Part shown: positions 19,879 through 64,000 of the stretch, in pieces
Position numbering within the stretch: the first letter of the stretch is position 1
How the letters are laid out: each line of letters opens with the position of its first letter
Source: Microthyrium microscopicum
Taxonomy: Eukaryota
Length of the DNA stretch: 64,000 nucleotides
Reading direction: 5' to 3'
Assembly (NCBI GenBank): GCA_010405405.1
Contig: MU004241.1
Coordinates: forward strand, 558,001-622,000
The notes under the pieces: generated by a model
The model's input: only the letters and a program-made list of their open reading frames with translations
Databases searched by the model: none
What the model was told of the DNA's origin: nothing
Position numbers and translations under genes: made by a program

Positions 19879-19989
19879 CATTATTGTACTAAAAGATTAA
19901 TTTCTTAGAATTATTCTATAAAACTATTATTATTAGATTCATCTTATTAAGACTATTACAATGGTATAACTTTTAACTAGACATAAGTA

Positions 19990-21630: not shown

Positions 21631-21639
21631 GACTTAAAT

Positions 21640-25140: not shown

Positions 25141-25229
25141 ATAATACTATAGTACTAATAGGCTAGTAATATATAATTATAAAGAAAATAACTAAGTCTA
25201 AGAATATAATTAATTTTATTTTATATTTA

Positions 25230-27943: not shown

Positions 27944-28169
27944 TATATTTATAATATTCTAGATACTAATATAGGTATAATATAGTAGATAGCTCTAATT
28001 ACTATATATAGAGCTACTTTAGAAACTAGCCTTACTAGAATAATTACCTAAATACTTAGAATTGTCTAGGATTATTTAGGATTATCTAGAAGAATTAGAA
28101 GCCTCTACTCATCCTTATTAGAATTAAATACTTTATTATATTATAGTATTAGATCTTAACTTTATAAAC

Positions 28170-30900
28170 TACCTTATTATAGGTATATTAAGATTAAGTT
28201 CTATAATACTATACCCTTCTTATTATTATCTATAATCTATACTTCCTTCTTTTAGCTTAAGTCTTTATCTATAAGATAGAATAATAAGGCATAATTTAGA
28301 TCTTTCTTATTATTAGTAGCGTCTATAATATCCTAAGGGGTTAGAAGGCCCCTAAGGTTTAGTAGCTTAGTTTCTATCTATCCTAGTTTAGTAAACTAAA
28401 TATATATCCTTTTTAGCTAATTCTTATTACTAAGTTCTATTTATATAATTTATTAGTAATTAGAGCTTATATATTTACTTAAATATATAAGACTTACTTA
28501 TTAGGTCTATATAATTAGGATTATTCTACTTATTATCTACTTTATGCTTATTATTAGCTAAGAACTTACTATATAATATTACTTTCTTAGGCTATAGGGT
28601 ATATTCTTTATATTTATGTTGCTTATTAAACTTAGCTTTAGAACTACTTTGCTTATACCCTAAATATTATAATAGCTTAGAGGAGTTTTAGTTCTTGTTG
28701 TCTTCTTAAGTAGGTAGATTATAATTATCTTTCTATATAAGCTAAGGTTTTGCTTAAATAGTAATATTAGTAAGATTATTACTAGTTTTTTAAAGAATAT
28801 ACTTTATAAAGCTTATTAATATTATTATAGTTAGAAATATATATGTCTAATATTAGCTCTTATTATTTTTTATATTATATTTTAGTTTTATATAATATAA
28901 GATCTTTAATAGTTTTTTAAATAAGTAAGCTTATTTTTTATTTTAAATAAGGTAGTTATAAGTTCTATTATTTAAGCTATTTTTAATAACTTGCTATAGT
29001 TACTAATTAGTATTATATTATTTATTTAATAACCTAAATTACCTTAATATATAGGTAAGTTATACTAAAAATTATTAACTTTTTAGGTAATAGTTTCTAT
29101 ATATAGCTTAATAAGTATATAGATATATGTAATAAGTTTACCTAAAAATAGTAATTTTATAGTCTTTATAGCTTAGTAGTCTCTAAAATATTTTCTACCC
29201 TAACTAAGTATAAGGATTTTATGCTTATAACTAGTATGTAAATAGAATAGTAAGTTATTAATAAGAAAAGGAATTATCTTACTAATAAATAATATATATT
29301 CTTAGAAGTATTATTAATATATAGTTATAATTTAGTCTTATTTAAAAATATAAACTTATATAAGGTTTACTTTCTCTATTTTTACTATGCTTATATAATT
29401 TAGTAAAGTTACTATCTTTTCTTAGCTACTTAGTAAACTTCTATATATCTAGTTTCTTAATCTTAAGTAATTTTAGGAATATAGAGTTAAATAGTACTAA
29501 CTAGTATATATCTTACTTAGTCTAAATATTTAGTAATAATATTTTTAACTATTTAGATATAGTAATTCTATGCTAACTAATGTAATGCTATATCTAGGTA
29601 GTTTTTAAAGTTAGCTAAATTCTATATATACTATATCTAAAAAGATATAAGAATAAACTTATATTCCTATAGAATTAGTTATACTTAGATATAGTTAGTA
29701 CCTTTAGGATATTAATTACTATAGTTAGGAACTTAGGTAGCGCCTCTTCTAAATATACTTTATAGTAATAGTTCTAAAGCTTATTACTTATTATACTTTA
29801 CTTATTAATATTGTTTTAATAATTTAGCTAAGGATCTAAGTTATACTTACTATTAAGAGTAGCTAAGGTTAGTTTATTTATAGTTAACTTAATAACTTTA
29901 TTATTATATAGACCTTAGCTTAATATAGGTTCTTATTTACTTTTTCTTATAGGTAAATGTAAACCTTATAATAGACTAAATCTATTAATAAGATTATTAG
30001 TATTATAATAATAAGCTTAGAAAGAAATAGTTATTTAAAGATTATATATAGCTACTAAGGTATAGAAACTAGTAGACTAGATTATATAGATTATAAAGAG
30101 AGCTTATTTATATTTATACTATATATAAGGTAATTACTAAAAAAATAATTGCCTAAGCTAAGAATAAATATTTAGTCTATATTAGAAAGTAGTAGGTTAT
30201 ATATTTATGCTTATCTTAGTTTCTATAAATAAAAATAACCTAGCGTAGCGTTTTTATTACTTATAATTTAAGAAGGGCTATAATTAGAAGAATCTACTTT
30301 AATACTATTATATTAGCTTATATATATAATAAGGTAGAAATAAAATAGAATAAAAGAGATAGATACTAGTATATTATATAATACTACGTTACTTATTAAG
30401 CTTTTCTAAGTAATTATATTACTATAACTAGTAAGATAAAGAGAAGAAGTTTCTAGAATAGTTTAAGACTTATATATTTATTAGTATTTATTAGTTTTCT
30501 AAATAAATCTAAATAAATAAATAATAGAAATACTTAGCTACTACTAAAAGATTTATCTAAGGTACTTATAGGTCTTATATCTTAAATAGCTTCTAGAGCT
30601 TTATTAGAAGTAGCGTTTAATACTATATAGGAATTATGACTTAATTAATATTTAATAGGAATTATTTTTTTAGAAATTATTAAGCTAGTTTTTAGATAGT
30701 TAAGTAAGCTTAACTTAGAGTTTAAGGCCTAGAGTTTATTAGTACCTCTAGATTTATAAGTATTATTTTGCTTAATAGTAGTACCTTTAACTTATATCTA
30801 CTTAGTTAGGTCTAAAAACTTTATCTATTTATCTAGCTAGCGAGCGATTATTATATTAGCTAATATTTAGTTTAGTAAGTATATTTAGAGTATATTATAT
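28170..30900 (-). pseudogene. RIP-degenerated multi-exon gene(s), unknown function
   Basis: Minus-strand introns (e.g. GTAAGT at ~28497 ... TACTAAT ... TAG at ~28437; another at ~28802-28753) join codon-like exons. No domain recognised. Confidence 0.4.
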
Positions 30901-31579
30901 TAGTATTAAACGTCTATTTTATAAAGTCTATTCTGTTTTATTTATTATAGCTCAAAAGGTCTTAAGCTATAAAGTTTTATAATAGAAATCTACTATTTCT
31001 AATAAAGAAGAATATATAAATTAGAATCTAATAAAAGTAAATTGTAGGCTAAGAAAATATACGTAATAGTTTACTTAGCCTTACTTCTCTTTATATCTTA
31101 ATCTTTATAAGTTTCTATAAGTCTACTTCTTATTTTACTTTTTATAATATTGCCTTACTTTACTAAATTTATTACGGTTTTATTAACTTAGTATAGGCTT
31201 ACTTAAGAGATTATATTATATATAAAACGTATTATTAGGATTTAAATATTAAAGTAAAGTAGTAGTAAGAATCTAATAAGTATAATATTATAATAAAGAT
31301 TACTAAGTATATAGGTATTTTAATAGAAATATATAATTAGTAGAACTTTAGATAAGTATAGTAAAGAATAAGAAGTAAATTATATAGAATAATAAAGAAA
31401 GAAGATAATATTTTAAAAGTTATACTATATAATATATAAAAGATATTAGTACTAGGACTAATTCTAGTAGCGTTTCTTATTACTTTTTAACTCTTAACTA
31501 ATATAGTATATGCTAAGTATATATAAAGGCTATATTCTTAAAACTTATTTAGCTATTATTATTAGTTCTTATTAAATAG

Positions 31580-32060
31580 GCTATTTTAAGGACTATATAA
31601 AAGGAGTAAGAGGAGGTAAGTTATGTTAAGCTATTTCTATATTACGCTATATTAATATAAGAGGTTAAACTAAAGTAGATTATAAAATCCTATTTAGCTA
31701 TTACTTTTTATTATTATTAGATTTGTTAATTCTAAGGCTACGTAAAAGGGGCTAGAGATTATTAAGTCGTACTAAGTAATTTCTATGCTACGCTATATTA
31801 AAGTAAAGACTAGGTAGTAATCCTATATTATAAAATTAGGTTTAGCCTATTATTATATTTAATTATCGTTTAATACGCTAATTATTATATATACTAATTC
31901 TTAGGCTATATAAAAGGGGCCTAAGATTATAAGCTTATACTAAGCTATTTCTATATTCCCTTATATTAAAGTAGAGGCTAGGTATTAATTTATATTATAA
32001 AATTGCGTTTAGCTATATTAATCTATATTATAAAGTTGCGTTTAGTTATTACGCTAATAT
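31580..32060. repeat. Degenerate tandem repeat, ~3 units of ~150-170 bp
   Basis: GGCTA(T/C)(A/G)TAAAAGG...TAAG(C/T)..TTTCTAT...TATATTAA recurs at ~31590, ~31735 and ~31904. Confidence 0.7.
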
Positions 32061-33245
32061 ATTATTAAACGTATAAGTAAGCTTAAGTATTATATAAAGT
32101 AGGTAAGAGATTTATAGTTTATAATTAATAATAGTAGGATAAGCTAAATCTAAATAGTTAAATAGAAGTTAATATTAGATTTACGCTATTTCCTATAAGA
32201 ACGTCTTAATTGCTACTCTATTAAGCTACTAAAAGTTTATATTCTCTTTTATTACTACTATGCTACTATAATAAGCAAAATACTAGCTACTATTATTACT
32301 CTTCCTATATAAGATAAGTTAATTATTTACTAAATTATTCTAGGAATATATAAATATATTTAGCTACTAACCTTTACTAGCTAGAGTAAGCTTATCTAGT
32401 TTATATAGGGGGACATTTTTAATAAAGAGGCTAGCATTAAACCTTTTAATTACTTTATTTAAGTAACTAGTCTATTAGTAATTACTATTATATTATTTTA
32501 TAGCAACTAGTTTATCTCTTTTAATTATAAGTAAGCTATAGAAGCTACCTTTATTACTAATTAAGCTAATATAGGGTCTAAACCTATAGAGTCTATAAGT
32601 CCTAAAGTATTATATTAGTTACTATCTTTATGTATATTAATAAATAATAGTTAAATACTAGGTATTACTATACTTATAGTCTATGCTTACTTAATAAGTC
32701 TAAACTCTTCTATTATTATATAATAGTTTAATTTTAATTCTATATATTAAACTTAGTAAGATATTAGTTAACTATTATAGTACTAATTATAAATACTATT
32801 CTAACCTTCTATAGATAATTACTTAATCTATATATTATATAACTATCTACTCTTTTATAAATATAGTAATAAATATATTAACTATATATAGACTAGCTAT
32901 ACTTTAATAAGTTATATTAATTCTATAGAAACTTATTATAAAGTATATAAGAAAATACTAAAGAATAGTATTCTAATAATCCTATAATATATAGATAATC
33001 TTTTATATACGTAAGCCTATTAGCTAGTTAGTACTATTAGATAGAACTTAATATTTATAGTGCTATAAAATACTATTTCTTAGTTAAATTCTACTAGTAT
33101 ATAAAGAATAAGTAATACTTTCTAGTTTTATTAAATAGGACTACTAAACTTAGCTAATATATATTAAAAGTCTAATTAAGATACTTCCTTAGTATTAGAA
33201 TTACTAATAATTATTAACTCTAATCTATTAGATACTACTCTAAAG

Positions 33246-33600
33246 TTAGAGTTATAAGCTCCTTCTATTATAAAGCTTAAGGCCTTTATTAAATAATTAC
33301 TAAACTAAGAGTTATAGTAGGCACCTTATTTTATAATTTTTATTAAATAACCTCTAGAATTAGAGTTATAAGCTTTATCTATTATAAAGCTTAAGACCTC
33401 TATTAAATAAGCTTTAAACTTAGAGTTATAGGCTCCTTTCCTTATAAAGCTTAAGGCCTCTATTAAATAAGCTTTAGACTTAAAGTTATAAGCTTCTTCT
33501 ATTATAAAGCTTAAGGCTCTTATTAAATAAGCTCTAAGCCTAGAGTTATAGGCTACTTCTATTATAAAGCTTAAGAACCTTATTAAATAAGCTCTAGAGC
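33246..33600 (+). repeat. 60-bp coding-type tandem repeat (~6 units) within a plus-strand gene relic (~32500-33900)
   Basis: TTAGAGTTATAAGCT...ATTATAAAGCTTAAGGCC..TATTAAATAAGCT at 60-bp spacing. Reverts to a P/E/S/A/Q-rich 20-mer like SESQAPSVxEPEAxxEQAP. Confidence 0.85.
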
Positions 33601-36600
33601 ATTTTATTAAAACTAAGTTATAATTATTTCTTTAACTTAAGATAGAGGCTAGCTCTTAAGTTTTACTAGAAGCTCTTATTAAGCCTAATATAAAGCTACC
33701 TTTTAATATTAAGCTTAAGGCATTTTTTAAAACTAGAATAAATACTATTATATTAAGAACTAAAATATAGCCTAATCTTTAAGTATCTAATAAACCTATA
33801 TTTAATTAATTTATAGTATTATTTACTATCTATACTAAGTAGCTAGTAGACTCTAAACGCTATTAACTTAATAGATATATATAGATATATTAAGAAGGTA
33901 ATTAGTTTACTATATAGGAGTAGTAAAATAAGTAATATGCCCTAAAGAGTAAAAAAATACTTAAACTAAAGCTAGGATTTAGATTAGTATATATAAGGAT
34001 TTAATATCTAAAGCTAACCTATCTTACTAAGCTATTAAGATCTAATACTAATTTATCTTGCCTAAAAAACGTTTACTTTATTAACTATAAGGTTATAAAG
34101 CTAGGTTTTAACTTAGAAATTAGGTATTTTAGTATACCTTAGTATCTTACTTATAATAATTAATATTATGCTTTGTTCTAATTATTAGTATATTTCCTAG
34201 GTTAAAAAGGAAGGAAGAACTTATAATAGTCTAAGGATTATATAATAATAAATTATATTTTATCTTTTAATTTATTTTATTACTTTAAATTTAATAGTCT
34301 ATCGCCTAATTAATATAGTACTATTAATTACTTTATAAAATAAGACCTTACTATTAATAGGAGTTCTTTTCGTTTAATTAAATTTATAGAAAAGTAAAAG
34401 CTCTTTATGTTGCCTATACTTAAAGAATTCTCTAAAGAACTTAACTATAGTATTATAATTTAGAGTATTAGCGTTTTTCTTAAAACTATTATAGCTACTA
34501 TTTATAAACTTTCTATAATCTAGAGTATAAATATAGTTGTTTACTACCTTATAAATATATATTTATATATTTATAACTACTAAAGAAGAGTTAGAGTCTA
34601 GAAGTATATATAGCTATACCTTAGGTTATATATTACTATAATTCTAAAATTATTTTAATTCTTTTAGCTTTAAGTTCTAGAGAGATGCTAGTAAAGTTCT
34701 ATTAATAATAGACTCTATTTATTATTAATAAATAGTTAAAGTTAGAATAGAGGTTTATTTACGTATATTCTAAGTTTAGGCTTTTATTTATTTTTATTAG
34801 CGTATATTTTATTAGTAATAATAGACTAATATAAAAAGTAATTTTTATTATTTATCCTTATATATAACTTTATTATACTTTATACTTAGCTAACGTAATC
34901 TTCTAATATATAGATAGCCTTATTTAGCTAGTAATTATATACTTAAGTATTATATAATATTAATAATTATTTCTTACTTTTCTTTATACGTATTATAATT
35001 ATTAAGACTATAGTATAAGTCTTAAAGTTACTTCTCTACGGCTATAGCTAATTAGATATATTTATTTAAGTTTATATTAAGTTATTATATTAGCTTCTTC
35101 TTAGTTATATTTAAATACTTCTTTAAGCTATTTTGCTATCTAGTTATATTATCTTCTAAAAGTCTAACTATAATATAAAGGAGTTATTAAGTAAAGAGGA
35201 TAGTATAAGATTAAAGTTAGAATAGAGAGAATATACTAAAGATTAATAATAAGTATATTATAAAGATTAGGAGTTATAAATTTATTATAATATAGAAAAG
35301 AGAATATAAGAGAAATATACTATAGTAGTACTTAAATAGTTAAAAACGCATTATTACTTAGGACTATATACTACTTATAACTAGATTTACTAGTTCTAAA
35401 GGCTTATATATTAAGCCTATAGATATCTTTACGCTACTAGAAAAAGACTTATAAACTTATATTTAGGTTAGTAGCTATAATTAGGTTATATTTATATATA
35501 AGATATAAAGTAAGTAGTAGTATTTAGTATTAATAGTATAATAAAGTAAATATTCTTTAAGGTTATATAAGATATTTTTAGAAATTTCTAAACTTATTTA
35601 GACTTTCTAGACTTTTTTAAATATACTATTATTTAAAACTTATATACTTTTAAGAAAGGTTACTTTATAGATATATTTATAGCTTAGAACTACTATCTTT
35701 ATATTTCTTATACTATAATATATAGTACTATAGATTTTATCCTTTAGTATAATAAGTTAGCTAATAGTTATAATTATTCTAATACTATAGGATTATAACT
35801 TCTATATTACTATAGTTTTACTTTATAATTTATTATTTAGTATATTTACTATACTTAAATAATAACTAAGTCTAGTATATAAATTCTAAAAAGTAATATC
35901 TATTCTAGATATAATTAAGGCATTCTATACCCTATTATAATAAAGGTCTAAATAGTAAATTATTCCTAGCCCTTTCTAATAACTAGCCTTCTATATATTA
36001 ATATTTTATAAGCTTCTATTATTAACGTAAGATTTCTAGTAATAACTTACTTACTAGTCTTATAATTTAAGAAATTATATATTTATAAAATAAACTATAC
36101 TTACTAAGATAAAGAGGGTTATATAGGTAGTAGTTTAGATATTCTAGCTTGTTTATTATTAGCTCTCTATATTTAAAATTATTAATAGCTATATAGTTTT
36201 ACTTATAAGATTACTATCCTTATCTCTATTAAGTTAAGAAATATTAGTACTAAAAGATATATTATAGTAATAAAGCCTTTAGTTATAATCTTTTACTTCT
36301 AAAAATAAATCTATAGTAATAACTTTAGATTTAGTAACTCTAATAAATTAATAAAAAGGTTAGTAATTATTATTATTATTCTATTTTTATTTAAAAGTAA
36401 AATAAGTAAATTAAGAGTATGCTATAAAGCTTAAAAATTATTTATAGCTACTTATATATAGTTACTACTATATAATAAGTTTGTCTTAAGTAGGTATTAT
36501 TATAAGCTTTAATATAGCTAGTTTACTTATAATTAGTATTAATTAAATAATAAGAAGTAATATAAATAAAATAAAAGTCTAATAGCTATTTTATATAAAG

Positions 36601-39399
36601 TAGACTTATAATAAGATTACGTCTTTTCTTTACTATAGTAGTTAAAAGTCTTAGTATATTATCTAAGACGCTATATTACGTTCTAAATCTTATATTATAT
36701 AATCTATTATAAACCCTATAGCCTTTTATAAACGTAATTCTATTAAGTACTTTATTTATAAAATACTAAAAGTAAGTACCTAAGTATATATAGTCTTTAA
36801 TATTTTCTAAGTTATTTCTACTAAGGTAAATAAGAAGTATATCTACTTAGAGGTAAATAGGAATAATATAAAGAGAAAATATAATATACTTAAATATTTT
36901 AGATTTAATAACTCTAGTTAATATTATATCTCCTTAATAGGAATTAAAGGCTCTTTTATTTTTAATAAATAATAATATTTCGTAATATAGACTAGGTTAT
37001 ACTAATTAATTTATAAAGCATACTAATAGAACTAAATAATAATAATTATTATTTAGTTCTCTACTTAAAGTACTAACCTCTTCTATTTTAATTTCTAGCC
37101 TAAATATAATTAATAATAATAATTTAGACTTTTATTACTTCTAAATTATTATATTAGCTTAGTTTTATAGCTAATTATAATAGTCTAGTTATTCTTTACC
37201 TCTACTTACTATATCTCTTCTTCTTTTACCTTCTATTCTATTTATTTCTTTTTCTTTTCTCTTTTCTCTTTTTATTTTTTATTCTTTTTACTTATAATCT
37301 TTTCCTTCTCCTCTTTCTTCTTATTTACTATTTTAAAGTATAAGTAAAAGAGGTAGTAGTAATAATATTAATATAGTAAATAGTTTTATAGCTAAGGTTT
37401 ATTTTATTTTAGTAAACTCTACTCTTTTCTCTTTAAAAATAATATCTTAACCTTTATACTAACTAATATATATTTAATATAAAAGTATAGTTACTATAGA
37501 TAAGAAAAAATAAGTAGTAAAAAAGAAGATAAGAAGCCTTAAAGCTTAGTAATAATTTTAAGTTTAAAACCTTACGTAACTTTTTTAATAGTTAATTAGA
37601 TTCTTAGATTTTAAGAGTAATAAGGTAATCCCTTCTATTAAATATACCTATAATTTAAGATTCTATTTCTCTTAATTATTACTTCTAATTACTACTTCTC
37701 TTATAACTTATCTTATTATTTACTATATATCTTCTATAAATAAGTATATTTAGAACGTCTAAGGTTATATTAAAAAGCTTTCTAATATAGAGACTAGAAC
37801 CTTTAAAATAAAAAAGTATAGATAAAGAAAATTATTTAAGCTTTTAGAGCTAATATTATTAATTAACTTTAATATAGTAACTATAGGTTTTATATAATAA
37901 CTTTTAGTTTCTACTTAGTAAAGAGTATCTTATATCTTAAACTTTAGGCCTTCTTAGCCTCTTTAGCTACTATCTTAATTTTATTTTTAAGTATAATCTT
38001 CTCTAATAAGTTAGTAACTTTTTCTACCTTAGTCTTCTCTTCTAACTAAGTCTTCTTTATAGCCTTCTTTATAGTCTTCTTTACGTACTTCTTTACTTTC
38101 TTTATATTTTCTAATTTCTTTATATTCTTAGCTTTTAAGTAAGAATATAAGATATAGTAAGCTTACTCCTAATAGAGTAAATAATTACGTAGCTATAACT
38201 CTATATTTGTAGAATAATTAGTCTATACTTAATTATTCTAGAGGATTATAGTTCTTACTCTTAATTTTATTTATATCTTAAGTATTACTTTACTCTTCCT
38301 TAGACTCCTTAAAAATTAGCCTAGGGTACTCTAAGTAGATTTAATTAAAGTATAGTAATACTTACCTAAGTAAATCTTAATAAGAGATATAGAAGGAATA
38401 GGTTGCTATAACTAGAATAAGTATATATTAAAGTATATATCTAAATAAAGCTAATTATAGAGAAGTATAATTATAGTTAACGTATTAAGATTAAATACTA
38501 TTTAAATTTAAATACTATATTAAGTTTCTTAAGGTTTATATATTTATATAAGCCTATTAGGTTTATAGAAGCTTAACTAAGTTTATAGATTATCTTAGTA
38601 TAAAAGATAATATAATATTTATAGTTATTAGTAGTAAATATAATACTAAAATAGATAAAGATATTAGGCGTAAAAATAGAGTTAAATAAGTAAGTTAGGA
38701 ATTAAAACTAGTAATAATTATTATAAGTAAGTCCTAAATTTAGGTAGTAAAGTTACTTAGACTAGTAGTTTATTATTAAGGTTATAAAAGGATATAGCCT
38801 TTCTTATCTAATTAAATAGAACTTAATACCTTAAGTTTAAGCCTTCTTAATCTCTAGTTCCTTATTCTTATCTTTTTTTATCTCTCTCTCTTTTATTACT
38901 TTTTCCTTAGCCTTTAGATATAGATAAAGTAAATAATAGAATTAATCCTAGTAAAGAGAGTAGTTATATAGCTAAATTTTTTTTAGTTTATTTAAGCATA
39001 TTAATAATGCTAGTGTTATAATATAGTATAATTTATTAACCTTTTACTAATAAAGATAATAGATTTACTTATAGAAAAGCTAAAGTTAAAGAACTAAACT
39101 ACTAATTTTTATTTTTAAGAGAGTTCTAATATTATAAATAAATAGAAAGAAGATTAATAAAATATCTTATTAGAACGTTAGCTTAGATTATTAATTACTT
39201 AATAGTATAAATAATATAACTTTATAATTCTTCCTAAGCTTTTTACCTAAGATCTTAATAAGAGCTATAGAAACTAATAGTACTACGTTATTTACTTTAT
39301 AAGTTAATATTACTAGAAAGAAAGAATATAAGTAGAATAGCGTTTATAAATAGATATAGCTAGGTTATATCTTATAAATATATATTAAAAAATATTTAG

Positions 39400-45250: not shown

Positions 45251-45264
45251 AAAAAAGTCTAGCA

Positions 45265-45418
45265 AAGCTAAAAAAGGTAGCTAAGTAAATCTAAGTAGTA
45301 TATAGCTATTACTAAAAGTATATATATAAGATTAAAGAGAGTTTAATAGAGCTAAAAAAGGTAGTTAGGTAAATCTAAGTAGTATATAGTTATTATTAGA
45401 AGTATATATATAAGATTA
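45265..45418. repeat. Two ~70-bp direct repeats (period ~84 bp) between divergently oriented gene relics
   Basis: AGCTAAAAAA(A)GGTAG(C/T)TA(A/G)GTAAATCTAAGTAGTATATAG...AAGTATATATATAAGATTA occurs twice. Confidence 0.85.
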
Positions 45419-45499
45419 GTTATATTATAGCGTATTACTATAATAACTTCTTAAGGTACCTTAAAAAAAGTTATTATTACCTTTATTAGTATAGCTTAG

Positions 45500-47300: not shown

Positions 47301-47999
47301 CTTATTTAACTAAAAGATTCTATACTAAAAGAAGGAATATTTCTATTTTCTTACTACTAAATCTTTTTTACTACTATTCTCTTACTACTATTCTATAATT
47401 ACTAAATTAAATAAGTTCTTCTAAATCTATTTTATACTTAGTTATTATATATAGAATAGCGTAGCTTTATAATAACTTTACTAATAGATAAACTTTTAGT
47501 TATATTTCTAGTAAAAAAAGTAATTCCTTACTTTATTCTTATAACCTCTTTCTTACTACTACTTCTCTCTCTTACTACTCTTTATAATTATAAAAATTAA
47601 ATAAGTCCTCTTAAATAATTTCTTAAGTTTATCTTTTTATAGATAGTATAGCTTAGTAACCTAAAGTTTAGGCTAAATAGCTAATTTTTAATAGTTACGT
47701 TTTTAGGCTTTAGTATAGTAAGTAAGTTATTACTTTTATTATTATTATTTATTTTTTCTTCTTAATACTTTTCCTTTCTTAAAAAAAATACTATCTAAAT
47801 TCTTTATATCTTCTATTTCTTTCTTAGCTCTTACTCTACTTATTATAAGCATAGCTACTTATAATGCTTTATATACTTAGTAATTAATATATAATTATAA
47901 TAGCTAAATCTATAACTAAGATATAAGTAAAGATAAAATTTCTACTAAGATCTTTAGCTATTTAGTTATTATAATTCTAAAACTTCTTCCTAATTAGTA

Positions 48000-53150: not shown

Positions 53151-54169
53151 ATAATAATAAGGAAAAGAATAGTAAGAAGGTTTAAGTTTAAAGTAAAGTT
53201 TGTTTAGCTAATTAATTAACTAACTTAAATAGTATAATAGTTAGTACTAAATAGAAAAAGGGTTTAGAATAAAGAGATTATATAGGTAAGAAAATTTAAT
53301 AAAAAAGGATATATAAGAGGGTTAGACTAAAAAGATAGATAAAATAGTACTATTACTAGAAAAGTTAATTTACTAAGCTAGTAATTAATAATATAAAGTT
53401 GTGTAATACGTCTCTAGCGTAATATTATAACCTATTAGTTATATAAGATTAGCTAGCATCTTTGCTTAGTCTTAGTACTAGCTATTTAGAATATTTAGAA
53501 ATGTCTAGTACGTCTAGAAATATCTAGTAAGTAAAGGTATATTATATATATAATAAAATATTATTAAGTAATATTTTTAGAAGTTAACTCTACTACTTAA
53601 GTCTTAGAATACTAAGTAAAATTAAACGCTAGTTATTATTAGTATAAATTTAATGCTAAATTTACTACTTATATACTAAGAATGTACCTATATCTTTAAA
53701 AGTTAATAAAGATAAAATAAGTATAGAAGTTAATATATTAGCGTAACTCTTTTAGTATTATGTATAATAATAGAGAGAGGTAATTAGATATAGATATATT
53801 TAACTTATACGTTTTAGTCCCTTAGTATATATTTAACTTAAATAAGTTATATTACTATTCTTATAGACTAATCTTCTTAAACGTAGGTATATTAAGTCTT
53901 CTAAATAGTATATAGTTCCTCTTTATTATAAACCTTTATAATTGCCTCTAAAGGCTCTTTAATTAAGTATAAAGGTTAATATTAGTAATAAAAACTCTAG
54001 TAAGAGAATTCTCTATAAATAGTTTCTTTACTAGTATAAGATCTACTACTTATCCTAGTTATAACTATACTATATATAAAATGCTTATAATAGAAGATAA
54101 GATAATTACGCTTTTTGCTATATTTTTATTTTTAGCTATCCTTAAAGCTATAAAAAGAGTTATTACTCT

Positions 54170-57100
54170 AATATAGTACGAACGTAGTTTATAAAATAAA
54201 ATAGATAAGGCTAATAAGTCTTAAAAGTCTAAGAATAGTATATAATATATAGTTAATAAAGTTATTATATATTTATAATAAAATCTAGGATATCTAGTAG
54301 GTATACTTATATTAGCCTATAGAACTAATGAAAGCTATAACTAGATTAATAAGTATAAGCTACTACCCTAAGATACTATTAAAATAGAGTACTAATATTA
54401 TTATTTAAGGAGAGAAAAGCTCTATAGAGGAGTAAAGCTATAGAGTTAACTAAAGAAAGAACTAGAATTTACTAATTAAGTAGTTTCTAGTAGTATATTA
54501 AAGAATAAAGTAAATAAGTTATTCTAAGGAATAGTCTTTAAAAGTAAAATACGTAACTTACTTAGTTAGAAGGTAAAGGATTATAAATTGCTAATAGAAA
54601 ATATTAATAACCTTAAAGGCTTTATACCTAGCTAATAAGAAGTAATACTTAAGGGGCTACTATATAATAAGATAAAAAGCATTAAAAATCTTCTAGGTAG
54701 TAAAGTTAAAATATACTTTTAAAGTATCTTAGAGATTATTAAATTCTTTATCTTCTATAAGCCTTTTACTAAAGACCTTTACTTTAAGCTTATAATATAA
54801 AAGAATAAAGACAATAAGCATATCTATATTAATGCTTAATTAGTAGAAAGGTAATAAGAATTATAAAATAAAGTTAATTTAGGTATTATGCTTATCTCTA
54901 TCTACTAAGAGTTAGATAAGACTATAATATCTAAATAATATAGTAATAACTATATATAAGCTTACTATATAACTATTTTTAATCTATTAGAAAGTATTAG
55001 AAGAGTTATAAAAAGACTAGGATTTCTTTTTATTATAGTACTCTTTAGGCTAAAAGGTATAGACGTTAATAGTAAACTTAAGATATTTTATAATACTATA
55101 GATATTATATTTAAAGGTTTAATACTACGCGTTTAAGTATTATAAAGCTATTTACTAATAAAATATAGAACTTAGAATAGTTCCTAAAAGTAATTATATT
55201 ATAGTGACTACTAATAGCTAATTTTAAAGGTATCTTCTAATTCTTACTTATATAAGTATAGATTATAAAGAGCTTATTATAATTATAAGTATTTAGTTTA
55301 AATATTACTATTTTATTTACTTAGTACTATAACTATATTAGTAAGACCTTACTAGTAAATAGGCTTATTAGACTTATATAACTTTATAAAAGAATATATT
55401 AAAGTAGGAAGTACTTTGCTACGCTAATTAGAAAAGAAAGTATACTAAGTAGCTTACTACTATTAATAATACTAAAGGTAAAGACTATATTTATAAAATT
55501 TATAATTTTGCTTAGAATTATCCTTTATTAAATATTTATATAGTAATCACTTTTAATTTACTATATATATTCTTTTTAAATAGACTAGTTAAGTAAATAA
55601 TAGACTAGATAGCTTAAATTATTTTAGAAAAGAGAGTACTAGTAATATCTATAGTACTAGTAGCTAAAATAAAGAATAATAAAGCTATATAGAAAACCTA
55701 TACCTATAAGATACTAAAGACTAAGAGGAAGAATAATAATATACTAAAGACTAAGTAGAAGAAAAAAAAGAAGAAGTTTATATTTAGCGTAAAAGTAAAG
55801 TCTATAATTAATTATAGGTTTCTATAGTATTTTATTTATTTAGGCTTTCTAAGAATAGCCTAAGGCTATTATAACGTTTAATAGAAAACTAGCCTAGAAT
55901 TATAAGTACTTTTAAAGTAACTTATAGCTACCTTAGTTCTACTCTTAATCTTAAAGGACCTAATTATAATAAAATTTATTAAAGCTTTAATAAATATTAT
56001 TATACTTTCTAACTATAAGTTATATAATAAGAATATACTTAAATATATATAAGTTTATTTATAAATTATAGAATATACTAAAATAGTAATATATAAGCAT
56101 AAGACTTCTTAAGCTAGATTTAAAGAGCTTAATTTCTCTAAGTTTTATAACTTAATCTATCTTATACTATCTATTTATATATTTAGTACTATAGATAGAA
56201 CTAGTTCTAGTATTATAGAAAAGTTATATTAGGAGTATATTATACTAGTAGTAAAATAGACTAACTTTTAATTTAGTTAGTACGTTTAAATAATCTACTA
56301 TTTTACTAATTATATTAAGAATATAATCTAGAATAATAATAATAACTATAACTATTAAGTTTATAATATTACTAAAAAGAAGATTACGTTTAAAGAAACT
56401 TATCCTATAATTATTCTATTAAGTATATCTAAATATAGTTTATAACTCTAATTATATTATATAGATAAGCTACGTAATAAGGGCATTTATAAATCTAGTA
56501 TACTTCTTACTAAGGATATTAGTAAATAGGCTAAGCTTAATGACCTTAAAAGTTATTTATATAGCTAGTTAATTAATCGCTATAAAGAAGACCTTAAGAA
56601 GCGCTAGTCTTTTTTAAAGCTAATACTATTATATATATAGGGTAAAGAAATATACTTAGATAAAAATCTTATTAATAATAGACTAGACTTTATATACTTT
56701 AGTAAAGTATTATATCTTAATGCTCTCTAGCTAAGTTACCTTATTATAATACTATATAGTAGTATAACTTACGTAATAAATAATAATAAGAATAATACGT
56801 AACTTTTTATAGCCTACTATAAATAAGAATAGTAGAAAGGTAAGGATAATAGTTAATAATATAGTAAAGTCTTAATTAAGAACTACTAGTAATATAACTT
56901 TATATAGGCTTAGGCCTATTTTATATCTAAGAAAAAGCTTAATAATAATTTTAGTCTTTTAGGTTAACTTTCTATATAACTATTTATTATTTATACAATA
57001 TATAATATAAATTAAATAATAAGAGATTTTAAATTATAGTATAAATATACTAGATTTCTTATAGCTTTAATTTAGGAGTATATACTAATCTTAAGAAAAG

Positions 57101-57590
57101 CTATAGAACTTATATTTAATAGGCTATTAGGTTTTATATTATTTAAGCTAGCTATAAAGTTAAAAGTATATAAACTAAATAAACTATTAACTATTATATA
57201 TATAGTTCCTTATAAAGACTTAAAGTATCTTAATTACTATTAGTTAAATTTATACCCTAATTATAATAATTATACTAAAATATATAACCTAGTTACTTTT
57301 AGTAAATAAGGAATTAAGGTAGCTAAGGCTAAAACTATAGTAAAATATAAAGCCTTAGAAAGAAAAAATAGAGAGCTTTATAAAGCCTAGATTAAAGTTT
57401 ATCTTAAGAAGCTTACTAATAAGATAAAGAGAATAAAGCGTAGTAATAGAAAAGAAGTAAAAAATAGAGAGAATAAACTAAATAGTAATAGAGAGGATAA
57501 GTAGAAGACTAGTAAAGATAATAAAAAAGAGACTAATAATAATAGTAAAGAAGATAATAGTAATAATAATAAAGATATATAGTAAAATAA
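54170..57590 (+). pseudogene. Plavaka-family (CMC/EnSpm-related DDE) transposase, spliced, RIP-inactivated
   Basis: Ordered motifs: IYF*SILEIIKFF..YKPF; HIYINA*LVER**EL*; ELDKT (SDKT, 54912); YYITIFNLLESIRR; 40-nt intron 55190-55229 restoring *NSS*K-YLLILTYISIDYKE (PILA...DYxE, 55261); YYFIYLVL (CxxCxVP); NFA*...NIY..ITFNLLY (DxLH); LNFSKFYNLIY...FSTIDRTSSSIIEKLY...*TN (KxH..H...FGT.D....ExLH, 56218). Confidence 0.85.
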
Positions 57591-57899
57591 AAGTCTAATA
57601 AATATTTTATTACTTAAGAGTTATATATTTTATAAACTACTAAGTATTATTATTATTATTATAATATTATCTTCTAAGTAATTTAGTTTTATTAGTATTA
57701 GTTATAGACTTAAATATAATAATTAGTATAATATAGAATATAATAAAATAAATTAACTTAAAAACTTTAGAAATATATATTTATATAGAATAGTATATAT
57801 ATAAGAGGTAAAATTATTTATTCTTTTTAATAGCTTTTAATTTATAATTCTTTAAATAAAATAATAGGCTATTAATTTTAAATCCTTTTTCTTTAGTAC

Positions 57900-58710
57900 T
57901 TATAGTAATCTAAACTTATTTTGCTTTTTTACCTTACTTTTAATATATATATCTTCTCTATACTTTACTTTAAGCTTCTATAAAGAGTTTATCTAGTTAC
58001 TAGACCTAAATATTACCTAATAATTATCTACTACTTATAGTAATAATTAAAATAGTAGCTATTTACCTTTATTATATATCTTTATTATCTTAGTTTCTAA
58101 TAACCTTCTTTATTTATAATAACTTACTTAGTTAATTAATAGCTTTATTACTACTTATTATAATACTATTATATTTTTCGTTTAATTTTACTATAAACTA
58201 TATACTATAATCTTTAAGATAACTAAAAATTATACTTAACTTTCTTAGTACCCTTATTTAAAGTATACTCTTATCTAAAAAATATAAATTATAAATACCT
58301 AGAATTCTAAACTACTCCTTAACTCCTTAAAGCTATTATATTAGCTAAATTAATACTTAAGTTAGAAAAGAATAATAATAATGCTCTAAACTTAGACGTA
58401 GAATCTTCTTTAGAAACTAATTAAACTAAACTTAAGTATAAAGTCTATTTAGACTTCTATACTACCTATTAGCAAAACCTTAGTTTTACTAAATAGACTA
58501 CTAGCTAACTTATAAATACTATATTATTAGACTTTCTTTAGTAAGATATAGTCCTAAAAGTAGATAAGCAAGTTATTACTATATAAGCATATAAAAACTA
58601 GATTCTTAAGTAGGGCCTTAGCATCCTTCTAAAAGTAGTTAAGCTATTAGTACTAATACTAATAATAGAGGAGGAGGTATAGGCGTAGTATTTTAATATA
58701 TATTAAGATA
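57900..58710 (-). pseudogene. RIP-degenerated low-complexity (P/Q-rich) ORF relic
   Basis: Minus-strand frame from ~58690 reads PIPPPL..., with many TAA/TAG where Gln codons would fit. No domain recognised. Confidence 0.3.
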
Positions 58711-60496
58711 TTTATAAGGCGCTAAATCTATAATTATCTATATAATATATACTATATTATAATTTAGTTAAAGTATAATAGAAATCTTCTCTTCTTAGCT
58801 ATAAATAGTAAAGCTTATAATAAAAAGATAATTATTATATAAAGATATAAGGTATCTCTTTTTAAATAGATAAAAAGAAAAAATAAGATATAGGTATAAA
58901 TAATATGCTATTTAAGAAAAATAAAGATAAGAGTTTAATGTAGGCTTAATAGAATTCGTAGTCCTATTAGAATATCTTTAATTTTTTTATCTTTAAGTAA
59001 ATAAGACTTTATAGTTAGAGCTTTTAGATCTACTCTTTACGTCCTAGTAAGTATAAAGCTAAGTTTCTTTTAGTATAGTACGTTCTAGACGTTAACGCTT
59101 AATCTTCTTAAGTTATTATAAATAAGTATATTAATATTAGTTAATTAGCTCTTATTTTACCTCTCTTATACGTTAAACCTACTCTACTAGTACTACTTAT
59201 TATTTTTTAGCTAGCTCTTAATTAATAATTACGTTAACTTTAGTAACTAATTAATTCTTATCCTACTATAAATAGTAATACTTCTTTTACTTAACGCTAT
59301 AAATATAGTAAAACTAATTAACTATATTTATAACTAATTTTCTAATATATTAGTATAAGATAGAAACTTAAAAAGTATAGCTTACTATATATAATAGTAG
59401 CTAGTATTTAGTTTAATTATTAATTTATAAACGTTATAATGCTATTAATTTATCTTTATAGCTAGTATAAGTATAGCTTATAAAGCCTTATCTTTAAGAT
59501 AGTTACTATATCTTATTAGTCTAGAATTATAATATCCTAGTATATGTTAAAAAGATAGTATCTATTATTTAGAATACTCTTAAAATAAGATATAAGAGCT
59601 ATTAATAAGGATAGAAGACTCTAAAGGTTTAAGTATCTTTCTATATTATATTATTAAAAAGATATAATAACTAAGCGCCTTACCTAGTATATTTAGCTTT
59701 CTTATACTAAATATATATCTAATAGAAGTATTTATTATATATTATAATATTAAGACCTAAAGCTATAAGTAGAGTAAGGAATTTTCTATAGCTTAATTTA
59801 CTATAATAAAGCTAATTCTTAGTAGTAAACTTAATAGCTACTAACTAAAAAGCGTTTAATTCTTTAGGTAATAGAACTAGCGTAATAAGCTTAATTACAA
59901 CTTTTTATTAATAATAACGTAAAGGGAAATAGTTTTTATCTTTAGTAGCTAGTAAGAAAAGCTTTTTTAGAAGATTTAGAAGTTATTATTCTTTAGTAGC
60001 TTAATAATAATATTATAAAAGCTTTTAATAGCTAAATAAAGAAGAATATTAGATAGTACTATTAATAGGTTTAGGGCTAAATATCTCTAAAGTTATAACT
60101 AAACTAAAACTTACTAGAATATTATTATTATTAAACTAAACTTAATTCTTATGCGTCTTATTTTCTACTAATATTCTTAATACGTCCTCTATATTCTACT
60201 ATACTTCTTCTTACTTATACCTATAGCTATTATATCCTATATTATATTTAGGTACTTATTACTATTATTTAAATTAAATAAGTAGCTATCTATAGTAGCT
60301 ATAATACGTAATAAACCTATAACTAAAATTAAGCTAAACTATATACTAAAGTAGAAAGTTATTAAGATTTTTAGACTTATTAATACTTTATTTAATATAC
60401 TCTAGCTTACGTTTATTAATACTATATTAAAGCGCTAGAGTACTAAAGCTAGACCCTCTTCCTAACTCTCTTAATTTCCTACTACTAAAGTATAGG

Positions 60497-60885
60497 CTCC
60501 TTTCTATCTTTAAATAAGTTTAAGTAATAACTTATAAAACTTAAAGTAGTATTATATTAATAATAAAATAGTATTAACGTAATATTATTTCTTAGAAAGT
60601 TAATATATAGCTATTATAAAAGTAGAATAGCTTTAGAGTAGTACTATAAAAGAATAATTATAACGCTAGTACTAAGGTAAATATTACTATATTATCTTAA
60701 TAATATTCTTATAAGTATTATACTATAAGTATATACTAATTATATAATAATAATAATAATAACGTATAGTAATATACTACTAAAATATAGATTCCTCTTC
60801 TTTTATAAATAAGTTTAAGTAATAACTTATAATACTTAAGGTAGTATTATATTAATAATAAAATAGTATTAACGTAATATTTTCT
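60497..60885. repeat. ~90-bp direct duplication, ~295 bp apart
   Basis: TAAATAAGTTTAAGTAATAACTTATAA.ACTTAA.GTAGTATTATATTAATAATAAAATAGTATTAACGTAATATT at ~60511 and ~60806. Confidence 0.9.
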
Positions 60886-62529
60886 TTAATAAAATCTTAT
60901 AAAAGAGAAACAACATATTAAATAAGAAGTAGAAGACTTATTAGTAATAATAGTAATTTATATAGATAATAGAATTTTACTCTAAAGTTACTACCCTAAT
61001 ATTTTTATCTATTATTTAGAAGCCTAGTAGTATTATAGTAAGCACTACTACTATACGCTCTATAAACCTAATCTATAAAACGTTATATACTTATATTATA
61101 GCTTATTATACTATAAAATATACTAAAGTTAGCTTTAGTAGTTTAAATTAAGTCTTTATAGATATTTCTAGACTTTTAAGTATATATAAACCTATATTTA
61201 CTTATAAAGTAGATTAGTATATAGATAATTATTATCTTATACCTACTTTATCTTATATCTACTACGTAGTTACTCTTATTATAAATCTATATTACTAAAG
61301 TAATTTCTAAAGTTAAGAATAAAGTTAAAACTAGGCTAGCTACTCTATCTAAGTAATATCTTATACTTTAGTACTCTAAGTATAAAAAATACTCTACTAA
61401 TGTTATTATCTACTAAGATAGTATATTAAAAAAATAATATAAAATAGCTCTTAATACTAAACTTTTCTAACTTTATAAATTATATAAAGGGCTCTATCCT
61501 ATTAATAATACTACTATAAGCCTTCTATATATAATACTTATTATTATAGCTAAATACCTTTATAGTTTCTATTCTACTAGCCTTTAAAATACTAGCTATA
61601 AAGGTAACTATTACTTCTTAGTATTTATATAAGAGTAGCTTACTATTTACTATAAAAGTTAAGACTTTAGTTATATACTAATAGGATATATATACTATAG
61701 AAAATTATAAATACTAGATAAGGTTTTTAAAGTAGGTAATTATATATTTAGTAATAGGGCTACTATTTTTAAACTATTAAGTAGGATATTAAGAAGGATT
61801 TTAAATATATAACTACTCTTAATAGTAATAAAGATTAACTTAACGCCTATTATACTCTACCTTAATATTTATTATTACTTACGCTATTACTTATATACTT
61901 ATTAGTCTTAGTTGTTTCTAAATAGATTATTTTTATTTTAAGCTTACTATTTAAAAACTAGTTCCTTATTATTATTCTTATTATTATAGACAATTAATAT
62001 ACTACTAAAAAATACCCTTAATTAAAGTAATTATACGCTTACTCTATTTATTTAGCTTATATTATCTTATAATAGACCTATACTACTAAAATATAAAGTT
62101 AGAGTTTATAAAGTTAATAGTAATATTATTACTTCTTAAGATACTTAAGTAAGGCTTTATAACTAACTTTAACTAGCTTTGCTACCTATATTCTAATTAA
62201 CCTATCTAGGATAGTAATTATAGTAATATTAAACTACTAAACTTCTTTATTAGTATAGGAGCTATATTTAGTATAAAAGTAATACTTTTAACTTAATATA
62301 TATTATTATAAAGGAAAGCTACTACTACCTAGCTTCTCTAAAGAATACTATATTTAGAGGCTATTATTACTATATATAGCTACGTTACCTTTTTTTACTT
62401 ATACTTCTAAAATACCCTAGAAGTCTAGGAACGTTTAAAAAAGTACTTTAAGTATTTACTACTTAGTATCCTTTATTCTTTATAAGGTCTACTTTATATA
62501 AGAAAAGGTTAGAAATATTATAGTAATAC

Positions 62530-63125
62530 TTAGTATATTACTCTACCTCTATTACTATAAAAGTTATCTCTATAGCTACTATCTTAACCCTTCTATATCT
62601 TTACCTTAACTACTATAAAACTTATCTTTATTGCTATTACCTTCTTCTTTATTATTATCTTAACTACTATAGAATTTACCTCTACTATATATTTTATATA
62701 TTTTAAAGCCTTTAATATTTTAGTTAGCTTTATAAATAAAGTAGTAAGATTATATTAAAGTTTAGAAGTAATAAAAAAAAAAGAGATAGAAATAAAAAAT
62801 ATAGTTAGGCTATTATTAAAGCTACTAAGTAAATACTAAAGGAAGCATAATTAATAATAATAATAATTACTATCTCCTTCTTTATTAAACTTACTTCTAT
62901 ATTAATTACTATAGAATTTACCTCTATAGTTGCTACCTTCTTTTCTATTAAACCTACTTCTACCTTAACTATTATAGAATTTACCTCTATAGCTATTATC
63001 TCTTTCTCTATTAAATCTACCTCTATCTTAACTACTATAGAATTTACCTCTATAGTTACTACCTTCTTCTCTATTAAATCTACCTTTACCTTAACTACTA
63101 TAAAATTTACCTTTATAGCTATTAT
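62530..63125 (-). repeat. 63-bp (21 aa) tandem repeat in two clusters, RGG-like
   Basis: TTAACTACTATAGAATTTACCTCTATAG recurs at ~62903, 62965, 63028 and 63091, with related units at 62540-62690. Minus strand GRGRFNREEGSNYRGKFYSS* reverts to about GRGGFDxEEGGNHRGEFHGGR. Confidence 0.85.
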
Positions 63126-64000
63126 AATTACTATAGTAAGACATAAAGAGCTTATTAAGTTAAAGAATATAAAAATTAAAGTAATAAGAAAATAAACCCT
63201 AAGTAAAGATTATTCTTAACTATATTAAAATAGTAAGTATCTAAAGATTTAATAGTTACTAAAGTAGTTACTAAGATATAATAATCTTTCCTTCTTAGTT
63301 AAGATAGTACTCTTTCTAAATTTTTCTTTTAGCTTTAACTTAATTTAATTTCTTCTCTCTTTCTTTACTTTACTTTCTACTTAGCCTAAGTATAAGGAAA
63401 ACGCCTATTAAAGTTATTTTAATAGCTTTTATATAGCATAATACTAAAGTACTACTATACCTAAAAAAGTACGTTTCTTTATAACTACCTAAGACTTTAA
63501 ATCTTACGTATAAAGTAAAAAAAACTCTATTTTTTTATATTATAGATACTTTTTATATAAGAAATAAAAAAGATTAATAGCTAAGCATAAATAGCTTATT
63601 TTCCTTCTTTACTTTACTTTCTATACTTATTTAGTTCCTTTAAATTAATTATATAAGACGTATATCTACTTTATAGTCTTTTTCTTTATAATAAATATAA
63701 TAGATAGAGTTCTAAGTAACTCTTACCTTCTTAAATTAGTAATAGACTATATATATTTATATACTTATTTACTATAAGAATATAAAGAAGTTATAAAGCT
63801 CTATCCTATTTACTATTTAGTTAATATTATACTATTATATATAGTAAAACTACTTTCTATAGACTTATATTTATTAAGATATAGAAGTAGCTATATAGTT
63901 TTATATAAGTAGATACTATTTCTTACCTATATATACTTAATAAATAGTTTTAGTTATATATAGTATATAAATAATATATATATAAATATTTAGTATAGCT

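Follow-up and report, generated by a model that had tools for sequence, protein, structure and literature searches.

Relics of a Plavaka-family transposase, a putative UPF1-like helicase and a putative SNF2-like ATPase in a RIP-saturated block of Microthyrium microscopicum

Composition and gene relics of the block

A block of AT-rich DNA from Microthyrium microscopicum (assembly GCA_010405405.1, contig MU004241.1) was analyzed together with its surroundings; the whole stretch of 64,000 nucleotides (positions 558,001 to 622,000, forward strand) is called the window, and all positions are given in its coordinates. The block, at 27944-64000, is saturated with repeat-induced point mutation (RIP) and contains the relic of a Plavaka-family transposase, with putative relics of a superfamily 1 (SF1) helicase and an SNF2-like ATPase to its left, which together may be the remains of one large transposon. 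A reading made earlier from the letters of the DNA (the sequence-only reading) had taken the entire block as one giant Plavaka-type transposon with an SNF2 ATPase, a UPF1-like helicase and a possible Ulp1 protease. The RIP and the Plavaka, SF1B and SNF2 relics stood up to the present analysis, and the Ulp1 motif, the coordinates and the single 36-kb element did not. The features, with the evidence used for each, are listed below, ORF standing for open reading frame.

54435..57327, plus strand: Plavaka-family (PF18759, CMC/EnSpm clade) DDE transposase relic (Pfam, phmmer, RIP-aware profile, tblastn)
51030..53400, plus strand: putative UPF1-like SF1 helicase relic (P-loop, traceback, RIP-aware profile)
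38444..45283, minus strand: putative SNF2-like ATPase relic ORF, ~2300 aa (frame path, traceback, RIP-aware profile)
45778..46029, plus strand: possible Ulp1/C48-like catalytic motifs, in RIP-reversed form only (translation)
27944..64000, no strand: RIP-saturated AT-rich block, part of a larger RIP isochore (GC, TA/AT, dinucleotide table, run of N)
48105..50900, plus strand: relic ORF stretch with an in-frame tandem array of 96-bp (32-aa) period at 50233-50642 (frame path, stop density; no Pfam family)
27944..38443, minus strand: relic ORFs, mostly in minus frames, with an in-frame array of 60-bp period at 33224-33598 (frame path)
57401..64000, no strand: RIP-mutated sequence downstream of the transposase, with an in-frame array of 63-bp period at 62863-63125 (frame path)

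The flank at 1-8000 was of normal composition (GC 45-49%). Beyond it, an AT-rich tract stretched from about 8001 to 64000 with a GC content of 16-25%, except for an island at 11.8-13 kb, and this RIP-mutated tract, at least 56 kb long, ran past the end of the window. Over the tract, TA/AT was 1.4-1.9 and (CA+TG)/(AC+GT) was mostly below 0.15; in all 2-kb bins of 27944-64000, the GC content was 18-22%, TA/AT 1.54-1.77 and (CA+TG)/(AC+GT) 0.02-0.14. The dinucleotides CA and TG had frequencies of 0.0017 and 0.0037 in the block versus 0.070 and 0.074 in the flank at 1-8000; CG, CC/GG and GC were reduced by 70-90%, and CT/AG was retained. In 8001-64000, C had been lost by ~96-98% before A, by ~88% before G and by ~80% before C, and CpT, which was spared, held 81% of the remaining C. 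This context preference departs from the textbook order for Neurospora. The dinucleotide pattern of 27944-64000 is that of saturating RIP sparing CpT, as the sequence-only reading had proposed.

The extent that it had given to the element was not upheld. Position 27944 is the first base past an assembly gap (995 N, 26949-27943) that lies within the RIP-mutated isochore, with the relic of a long interspersed nuclear element (LINE) on one side and the block on the other; position 64000 is the end of the window, and RIP-mutated DNA starts at about 8001. Since the limits of the block are the edge of a gap and the edge of the window, they are not element boundaries.

For the Pfam, phmmer and PDB searches, stop codons were read as X in the translations. 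Pfam was run on 19 such translations of the block (those along the best-frame path, plus further frames at around 54-57 kb) and gave matches in two, both to PF18759 (Plavaka) at 54687-55034 (+). In addition, a RIP-aware scoring was used, in which a C>T / G>A channel lies between each profile column and the codons that it emits, and the comparison is with a generic protein passed through the same channel. A frame-path (Viterbi) model was run on this RIP-channel coding score with a hAT transposase relic as positive control. Codon-shuffled frames, 25-codon block shuffles and dinucleotide-preserving shuffles served as nulls. The helicase and SNF2 profiles were applied by collinear chaining; plain local RIP-aware alignment with the bacterial SF1 and SNF2 profiles gave borderline or null scores, and neither a stop-density scan nor the three-base periodicity of G/C picked out the relics. 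Two procedures were discarded: scoring by the "best ancestral codon" showed a positive drift that made its scores meaningless, and RIP-channel log-odds were used instead; a null based on codon counts that had been pooled reflected mainly the GC-richer island at 11.8-13 kb. Pfam works on some RIP-mutated DNA, as it found the hAT dimerisation domain (E 3e-12). Its sensitivity was low here, and it missed a LINE reverse transcriptase later found by the RIP-aware test. Most relics in RIP-mutated DNA of ~20% GC escape standard searches, and RIP-channel scoring recovers them.

The frame path revealed very long relic ORFs. On the minus strand, 40124-45283 was a single frame (5160 nt, 193 bits above the next-best frame), continued at 38444-39733; on the plus strand, 48104-55123 was a single frame (7020 nt, 171 bits above the next-best). 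These long single-frame relics support the closely packed gene relics described in the sequence-only reading. At 45.5 kb the prevailing strand of the relic ORFs changed, most of those to the left being on the minus strand and most of those to the right on the plus strand.

Transposase, helicase and ATPase relics

Pfam PF18759 was found at 54687-55034 (+) with E values of 4.7e-4 and 9e-4 (19.9 and 19.0 bits, below the cut-off of 26.3 bits), the match spanning profile positions 38-158. In a phmmer search with the X-read translation of 51525-55124 against 1.84e9 representative proteins, 19 proteins were matched at E<=1e-3 (best 9.2e-10). All of them aligned to query residues ~958-1198, corresponding to ~54.4-55.1 kb, and all 19 contained PF18759 themselves (E 1e-22 to 1e-47). 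A RIP-aware profile built from the 19 proteins scored 312 half-bits at a single place, versus 42±3.7 for the codon-shuffled null; the same profile without the RIP channel scored 288. A search of the Plavaka part and of the Plavaka alignment against longer proteins gave no match.

A metagenome scan with nine of the 19 matched proteins yielded 80 Plavaka-related loci (698 kb, 4,775 ORFs of at least 60 aa), the closest of which to the relic was L113, encoding a transposase of 1104 aa. The relic matched L113 in tblastn with E 7e-17 in its first half and, in another frame, with E 5e-10 in its second half (55462-56269). By RIP-aware alignment, residues 201-503 of the L113 transposase were placed on 54435-55313 (score 264) and residues 445-1083 on 55156-57327 (score 381), each against a null of 39±3.8, and the relic covers aa 201-1083 of its relative. 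Among 841 aligned positions, 188 were identical and 439 RIP-compatible. Stops stood at 17 of 26 W and 12 of 32 Q positions and Y at 15 of 27 H positions, an enrichment partly built in by the alignment method. Opposite L113, "SDKT" was retained as "LDKT" (in "ELDKT"); "ADYEEQ" had become "IDYKEL" and "HCAKC" had become "YYFIY", both explicable by G>A and C>T changes.

One frame change was present in the relic, near 55.16-55.31 kb. All 19 database homologues (P0002-P0020) end at Pfam profile position ~193-196, where the relic changes frame, and L113 has an in-frame stop (4132/4133) at the same point; this shared break is probably a conserved intron or a gene-model break in this clade. The N-terminus of the transposase probably begins at ~53.6-53.9 kb. 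At 53631 (+), the stretch "YYxYKFNAKFTTYILRMY" resembles by eye, after reversal of C>Y and H>Y changes, the C2H2-like finger CPACWRRNFTTLSGLTRH of the homologue P0008, and it may mark the start of the gene. By sequence comparison, the predicted Plavaka transposase relic was confirmed as real and near full length, not a fragment, and here the sequence-only reading was borne out. At ~57285 (+), within the C-terminal end of the transposase, a hAT reference ORF (L190 10793-11857) scored 65.8 versus a shuffle maximum of 50.6, which may be due to chance or to a shared C-terminal fold.

The P-loop pattern G.GK[TS] occurred three times in the block versus a mean of 0.057 in dinucleotide-preserving shuffles, none of which (0/300) reached three; the sites were at 51213 (+), 42202 (-) and, in another minus-strand frame, 38912. 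The first belongs to the putative helicase. A profile of AAA_12 from 13 bacterial proteins scored 113.3 on 50913-53612 versus 69.7±9.3 (z 4.68), a score reached by 0/150 codon shuffles and 0/100 block shuffles; in cross-controls z was 1.3 and -0.08, the latter with the SNF2 profile on the helicase stretch. In the traceback, motif I ("PGtGKTt") fell on LGCGKTK at 51210 (the relic reads LGCGKTKT), motif Ia ("avnnl") on TINIxLDNL at 51312, "igvlspYraQ" on TIVITPYFMx (ITPY..Q) at 52464 and motif VI ("gFLsslnRlNValsR") on TSFLIENLxINTIVSx at 52695. These four occurred in order, and motifs II, III and V were not recognised in the traceback of 51030-53400. Pfam, a word-indexed protein search, phmmer against PDB and phmmer against the 1.84e9 representatives gave no match on the helicase part. 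As single-sequence RecD and single UPF1-like profiles were powerless (z -0.7 to 0.7), assignment to the UPF1-like subfamily follows the wording of the motifs. The putative SF1B helicase relic is reasonably shown at the level of motifs and profile. Its motif VI ends ~0.9-1.1 kb before the probable start of the transposase, on the same strand.

The SNF2-like relic is supported in the same way and is likewise reasonably shown as a predicted gene. A profile of 22 diverse bacterial SNF2 proteins scored 140.2 on 38444-42802 (-) versus 87.6±10.8 (z 4.85; reached by 0/120 codon shuffles and 1/80 block shuffles), with negative controls at z 0.98 and -0.60; a narrower SNF2 profile gave only z 2.55 (2/150 shuffles). 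The motif set of SNF2 proteins consists of the Q motif and GLGKT(I/V)Q, DExH, TGTP..W and helicase-C. The best block was "LrdYQ...W...GLGKTvq" on "VxIYx...GLGKTIx" (score 57.9), in which both Q positions are stops; the Q motif and motif I lie at 42301-42167 (-), with GLGKTIx at 42202. Weaker DE-, TGTP- and helicase-C-like blocks followed motif I in order: a motif II-like VLILDK at 41464 (-), a motif III-like stretch IRKFLKDKLKKDx at 41224 and a helicase-C-like start YKVILF at 39262 (-). The spacing of motifs I and II, 246 aa, exceeds that of the profile, and motifs V and VI were not recognised. Pfam, including PF00176 and PF00271, gave no match on this relic. An in-frame tandem array of 108 bp (36 aa) occupies 43379-44097 in its N-terminal part. 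Thus the helicase and ATPase named in the sequence-only reading held at the level of motif and profile scores and not in Pfam, nor, for the helicase, in PDB or protein searches; the family profiles that it had recommended returned Plavaka below the cut-off and no match for SNF2, helicase or C48.

The QNDxxDCG protease motif of that reading was not found as such, since "DCG" occurs in no frame of the block (count 0). The site at 46006 (+) reads KQNDYIDYR, and a DCG appears only after two RIP-type changes are undone. Upstream in frame lies SYYFIVIV (Y from H), followed 17 aa on by LDS and 59 aa further by QNDYID-Y(from C)-R(from G), giving a RIP-reversed layout H-17-D...Q-5-C-G, which resembles the residue spacing of Ulp1. 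Among the sites and frames scored with a profile of 14 bacterial C48 domains this one came top, but its score of 82.2 versus a null of 71.3±7.0 (maximum 84.5) is not significant (z ~1.6). A loose Ulp1 pattern, devised post hoc, gave four matches versus a shuffle mean of 1.8, and the strict pattern missed the site; Pfam and phmmer against PDB gave no match on the region. A Ulp1-like protease relic at 45778-46029 is an unproven candidate.

Besides these relics, the block contains tandem arrays. Self-comparison of the window DNA by blastn found tandem arrays only. Five arrays, all with periods divisible by three, were present at 43379-44097 (108 bp), 50233-50642 (96 bp), 45251-45419 (84 bp), 62863-63125 (63 bp) and 33224-33598 (60 bp), and those at 43.4-44.1, 50.2-50.6, 33.2-33.6 and 62.9-63.1 kb (four of five) are peptide repeats in the frames of relic ORFs. 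Their copies differ almost solely by transitions, and comparison in a purine/pyrimidine alphabet, for which they served as positive control, raised their identity from 80-87% to 98-99%. In the same alphabet, no dispersed direct or inverted repeat of at least 60 bp was found at 8-64 kb, so the window holds neither a pair of long terminal repeats (LTRs) nor long terminal inverted repeats (TIRs) nor a second copy. One long-range inverted pair, 37236-37317 / 57421-57506, was rejected as a TIR, being a CT-rich low-complexity tract. RIP turns the Plavaka termini (TGT..ACA, CATCA..TGATG, CATAC) into TA-rich strings. Pfam gave no match on nine translations from the parts of the block that flank 38.4-57.4 kb, among them 31724-34063, 34065-36464, 28334-30103 and 36463-38445 on the left and 58993-60732, 61754-62743 and 62743-63972 on the right, and 27944-38443 matched no retroelement or hAT reference.

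A composite element and its alternatives

We tentatively read the core at 38.4-57.4 kb, at least 19 kb long, as a large composite DNA transposon of the Plavaka lineage, present in one copy that RIP has killed, with a probability of roughly 0.4. The core is uninterrupted, with frames kept and with no nested retroelement or LTR pair. The motif order of the helicase and SNF2 relics is preserved, and block shuffling destroys their scores. As both lie in very long single-frame relics (7020 and 5160 nt, respectively), they would be whole, intron-poor genes; such genes are unusual among the host genes of filamentous ascomycetes. Saturation with RIP throughout argues that these multi-kb non-transposase genes were themselves duplicated, the multicopy status being deduced from RIP alone, and one duplicated unit is favoured because one duplication is more economical than three. 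Accessory genes have precedents in fungal Plavaka with TET/JBP (PMC12730594), in the giant Plavaka of red algae (bioRxiv 10.1101/2025.02.11.637652) and in plant CACTA elements with ULP1 (PMC2528002). The marks of RIP, the transposase and the pair of ATPase relics are observed, together with their order and frames, and from these we infer that the relics may have belonged to one mobile unit.

Such an element would belong to the CMC/EnSpm-Transib ("CMCT") clade of DDE cut-and-paste transposons. Judging from the family, a transposase of ~1100 aa would cut it out at short TIRs and reinsert it with target duplications of 2-3 bp. Directly upstream of the transposase and on the same strand, the element would carry the UPF1-like SF1 helicase gene and, in divergent transcription, the SNF2-type ATPase gene of ~2300 aa, perhaps with a Ulp1-like protease between the latter and the helicase; these extra genes could plausibly help it to reach or escape silenced chromatin. 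Once at least two copies were present in a sexual lineage, RIP would have converted nearly all CpA/TpG and most CpG and CpC, so that the GC content fell to ~20% and stops came to stand where Q, W and R had been encoded. The dead copy would now lie among the remains of other transposons, with hAT, LTR-like and LINE relics as its neighbours.

Several results weigh against this reading. Most of them fit an unlikely but serious alternative, the likeliest of those considered, in which a one-gene Plavaka element of 4-6 kb landed beside unrelated, separately repeated helicase and SNF2 relics and RIP flattened the whole into uniformity. The residual CpA and TpG are unevenly distributed: CA+TG per kb was 7.7-8.3 at 27.9-34.06 kb, 3.2-3.5 at 34.06-48.1 kb, 7.2-10.4 at 48.1-53.4 kb, 5.8 in the transposase relic and 3.6-3.9 at 57.4-64 kb. 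This heterogeneity is significant over ten segments (chi-square p 5e-5) as well as over the five core segments (p 4e-4), and it may reflect different RIP histories of the segments. The plus-frame stop density climbs at 53.05-53.5 kb, so that the helicase and the transposase are probably separate genes whose common frame is a coincidence. In the window, no ends, target site duplications or further copy are visible.

The relatives of the transposase also favour the separate landing of a one-gene element. None of the ORFs in the 80 Plavaka loci matched the bacterial SF1 and SNF2 profiles, and Pfam found no SNF2, helicase or C48 domain in 57 of the 61 largest non-Plavaka ORFs, the other four overlapping listed ORFs; its matches were C-terminal halves of Plavaka, ankyrin/NPHP3_N proteins, retroelement genes and a hAT. 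L113 itself has flanks of 2.8 kb upstream and 3.4 kb downstream without a long ORF (only small ones beyond 90 aa) and looks like a simple one-gene element; a search for inverted repeats around it gave no convincing termini. Moreover, at least three other types of transposon make up a mosaic in the isochore left of the gap. When tested with ten fungal reference ORFs drawn from the metagenome loci, these surroundings gave RIP-aware scores of 90, 72 and 89 for two hAT references at 13.0-15.3 kb (null <=51), 141-188 for LINE-type reverse transcriptase references at 23.2-24.2 kb (+) (null <=74) and 63.9 for an aspartic protease reference at ~19.0 kb (null <=47). A RIP-mutated cluster with SNF2-like helicases and no reported transposase is known from Stagonospora nodorum (PMC3017866).

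Against the separate landing, all but one of the ten references stayed at about the null or beneath it inside the block, the exception being the hAT reference with 65.8 at 57285, and the block holds no LTR pair and no reverse transcriptase, integrase or protease reference above null. The block thus lacks the marks of an LTR retrotransposon, and the absence of retroelement domains noted in the sequence-only reading held for the references used. Three complete multi-kb genes lie side by side with neither a nested insertion nor fragments, and the alternative needs several independent duplications of non-transposon genes. The composite element needs only one.

A second alternative, which we regard as improbable, is that a chromosomal segment carrying SNF2 and helicase genes of the host together with a resident Plavaka was copied through recombination, aneuploidy or hybrid origin rather than transposition, and then destroyed by RIP. 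RIP targets all duplicated DNA, the GC content is homogeneous at 18-22% over at least 36 kb, and no transposon ends are detectable in the window, all of which speak for it. The relic ORFs, however, run in one frame for 5-7 kb and appear to be intron-poor, unlike typical host genes, and the density of residual CpA/TpG is heterogeneous.

The composite reading contains within it a larger version, close to that of the sequence-only reading, in which all of 27944-64000 and beyond is a single Plavaka-driven element of at least 36 kb. The 36 kb are free of dispersed repeats and retroelement relics, and the relic ORFs change from mostly minus to mostly plus at 45.5 kb. Yet both limits are artefacts, the flanks of the core contain no assignable genes (0 Pfam matches on the nine flank translations), the CpA/TpG density shifts at ~34.06 kb and ~57.4 kb, and the giant Plavaka elements described so far measure 17-19 kb. 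With a CpA+TpG residue that is 2-3 fold uneven and 0/80 relatives carrying such cargo, movement of the 36 kb as one element was not borne out, and we consider it quite improbable. Carriage as cargo of another large element, such as a Starship with its captain in the gap or beyond the window and Plavaka as a passenger, is very improbable: the RIP tract of at least 56 kb does run off the window and the gap hides at least 995 bases, but DUF3435 matched none of 23 X-read translations (a test of low sensitivity on this DNA) and a literature search on Starships and SNF2 found no link between them.

If the helicase and SNF2 relics are cargo of the Plavaka element, DDE transposons of ascomycetes could grow into multi-gene giants with machinery of their own for chromatin or nucleic acids, and such cargo would be a natural place for anti-silencing functions; if the relics are chance neighbours among dead transposons, the locus is an ordinary one. 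Going beyond the core, it is conceivable though rather doubtful that a giant autonomous Plavaka lineage with an SNF2 remodeller, a UPF1-like helicase and perhaps an Ulp1 protease spread in a RIP-competent filamentous ascomycete. Such a lineage would be a cut-and-paste counterpart of Starships and of red-algal giant Plavaka, with a different tool kit acting on chromatin or RNA.

Related elements and surroundings of the block

Plavaka groups with EnSpm, Mirage, Chapaev and Transib. The ends are TGT..ACA in PlavakaA, with target site duplications (TSDs) of 2 bp, and CATCA..TGATG in PlavakaB, with TSDs of 2-3 bp; in the DDE domain of Plavaka, the last E is preceded by C(2)C and H(3-4)H motifs (PMC12730594). 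The relic transposase is a clear member of the fungal family (PlavakaA/B, PF18759). The host here is RIP-competent, the copy is dead, and its neighbours are an SF1 helicase and an SNF2 relic rather than the accessory TET/JBP gene of some fungal Plavaka (PMC12730594). The termini and TSDs are unreadable here, and the described families are mostly from Agaricomycotina. Consensus sequences of Plavaka with 2-bp TSDs and a CATAC motif are reported from Tuber truffles (PMC12581995), which makes the treatment of Plavaka as a matter of basidiomycetes in the sequence-only reading dated.

Giant Plavaka elements of 17.4-19.1 kb with three accessory genes, PAG1-3, are described in red algae (bioRxiv 10.1101/2025.02.11.637652); giant Plavaka with accessory genes and Plavaka in truffles are thus already published. 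Multi-gene Plavaka are so far documented only in red algae, other fungi having a single TET/JBP gene. The core described here, of ~19 kb, is in the same size class, and both it and the algal elements combine the transposase with several accessory genes, putative ones in the core, of chromatin- or DNA-modifying type and with internal tandem arrays. The algal accessory genes encode a DNA methylase with SET and a ParB-like protein with a 2OG oxygenase, whereas a helicase and an SNF2 relic are found here, and the algal elements are multicopy with defined ends, in contrast to one relic with ends that are not visible.

In plants, CACTA elements carrying ULP1 (CACTA-ULP) and MULE-ULP are known, and in CACTA-ULP a transposase of the CMC clade is associated with a Ulp1-like protease domain (PMC2528002). 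They belong to another kingdom, and the Ulp1 candidate of the block is without statistical support. The X3X3R8 repeat of the ascomycete S. nodorum, a RIP-mutated cluster in nine copies with Rad5/SNF2-like helicases and ORFs of unknown function, became apparent only after reversal of RIP; it has a Rad6 gene and no reported transposase, and it is likened to the block by description, not by sequence (PMC3017866). Starships share with the proposed element a giant size, cargo, hosts among the same fungi (Pezizomycotina) and proneness to RIP when multicopy, but their captain is a DUF3435 tyrosine recombinase, not a DDE enzyme, and no captain was seen here. A search of the literature on Plavaka and EnSpm, supplements excluded, found no report in which a fungal SNF2 or SF1 helicase gene is joined to either.

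The hAT transposase relic left of the gap extends over 12981-15230 (+), with PF05699 at ~14956-15183 (E 3e-12). Further relics of retroelements at 18591-25610 (+) were missed by Pfam; a reverse transcriptase-like "FTKLD...YLDNILIF" was recognised by eye at 19.9-20.3 kb, and an endonuclease-like motif, "EDFNYYYY", lies upstream. In the flank without RIP, five long ORFs (350-2626, 5716-6810 and others) had no Pfam family at E<=0.001. A GC-richer island (~34% GC, window 11848-12993) inside the RIP-mutated DNA escaped RIP. It is bracketed by a direct repeat of 233-244 bp (11848-12090 / 12750-12993) with 95% identity, or 99% in the purine/pyrimidine alphabet, and its translation gives protein-like text of normal composition.

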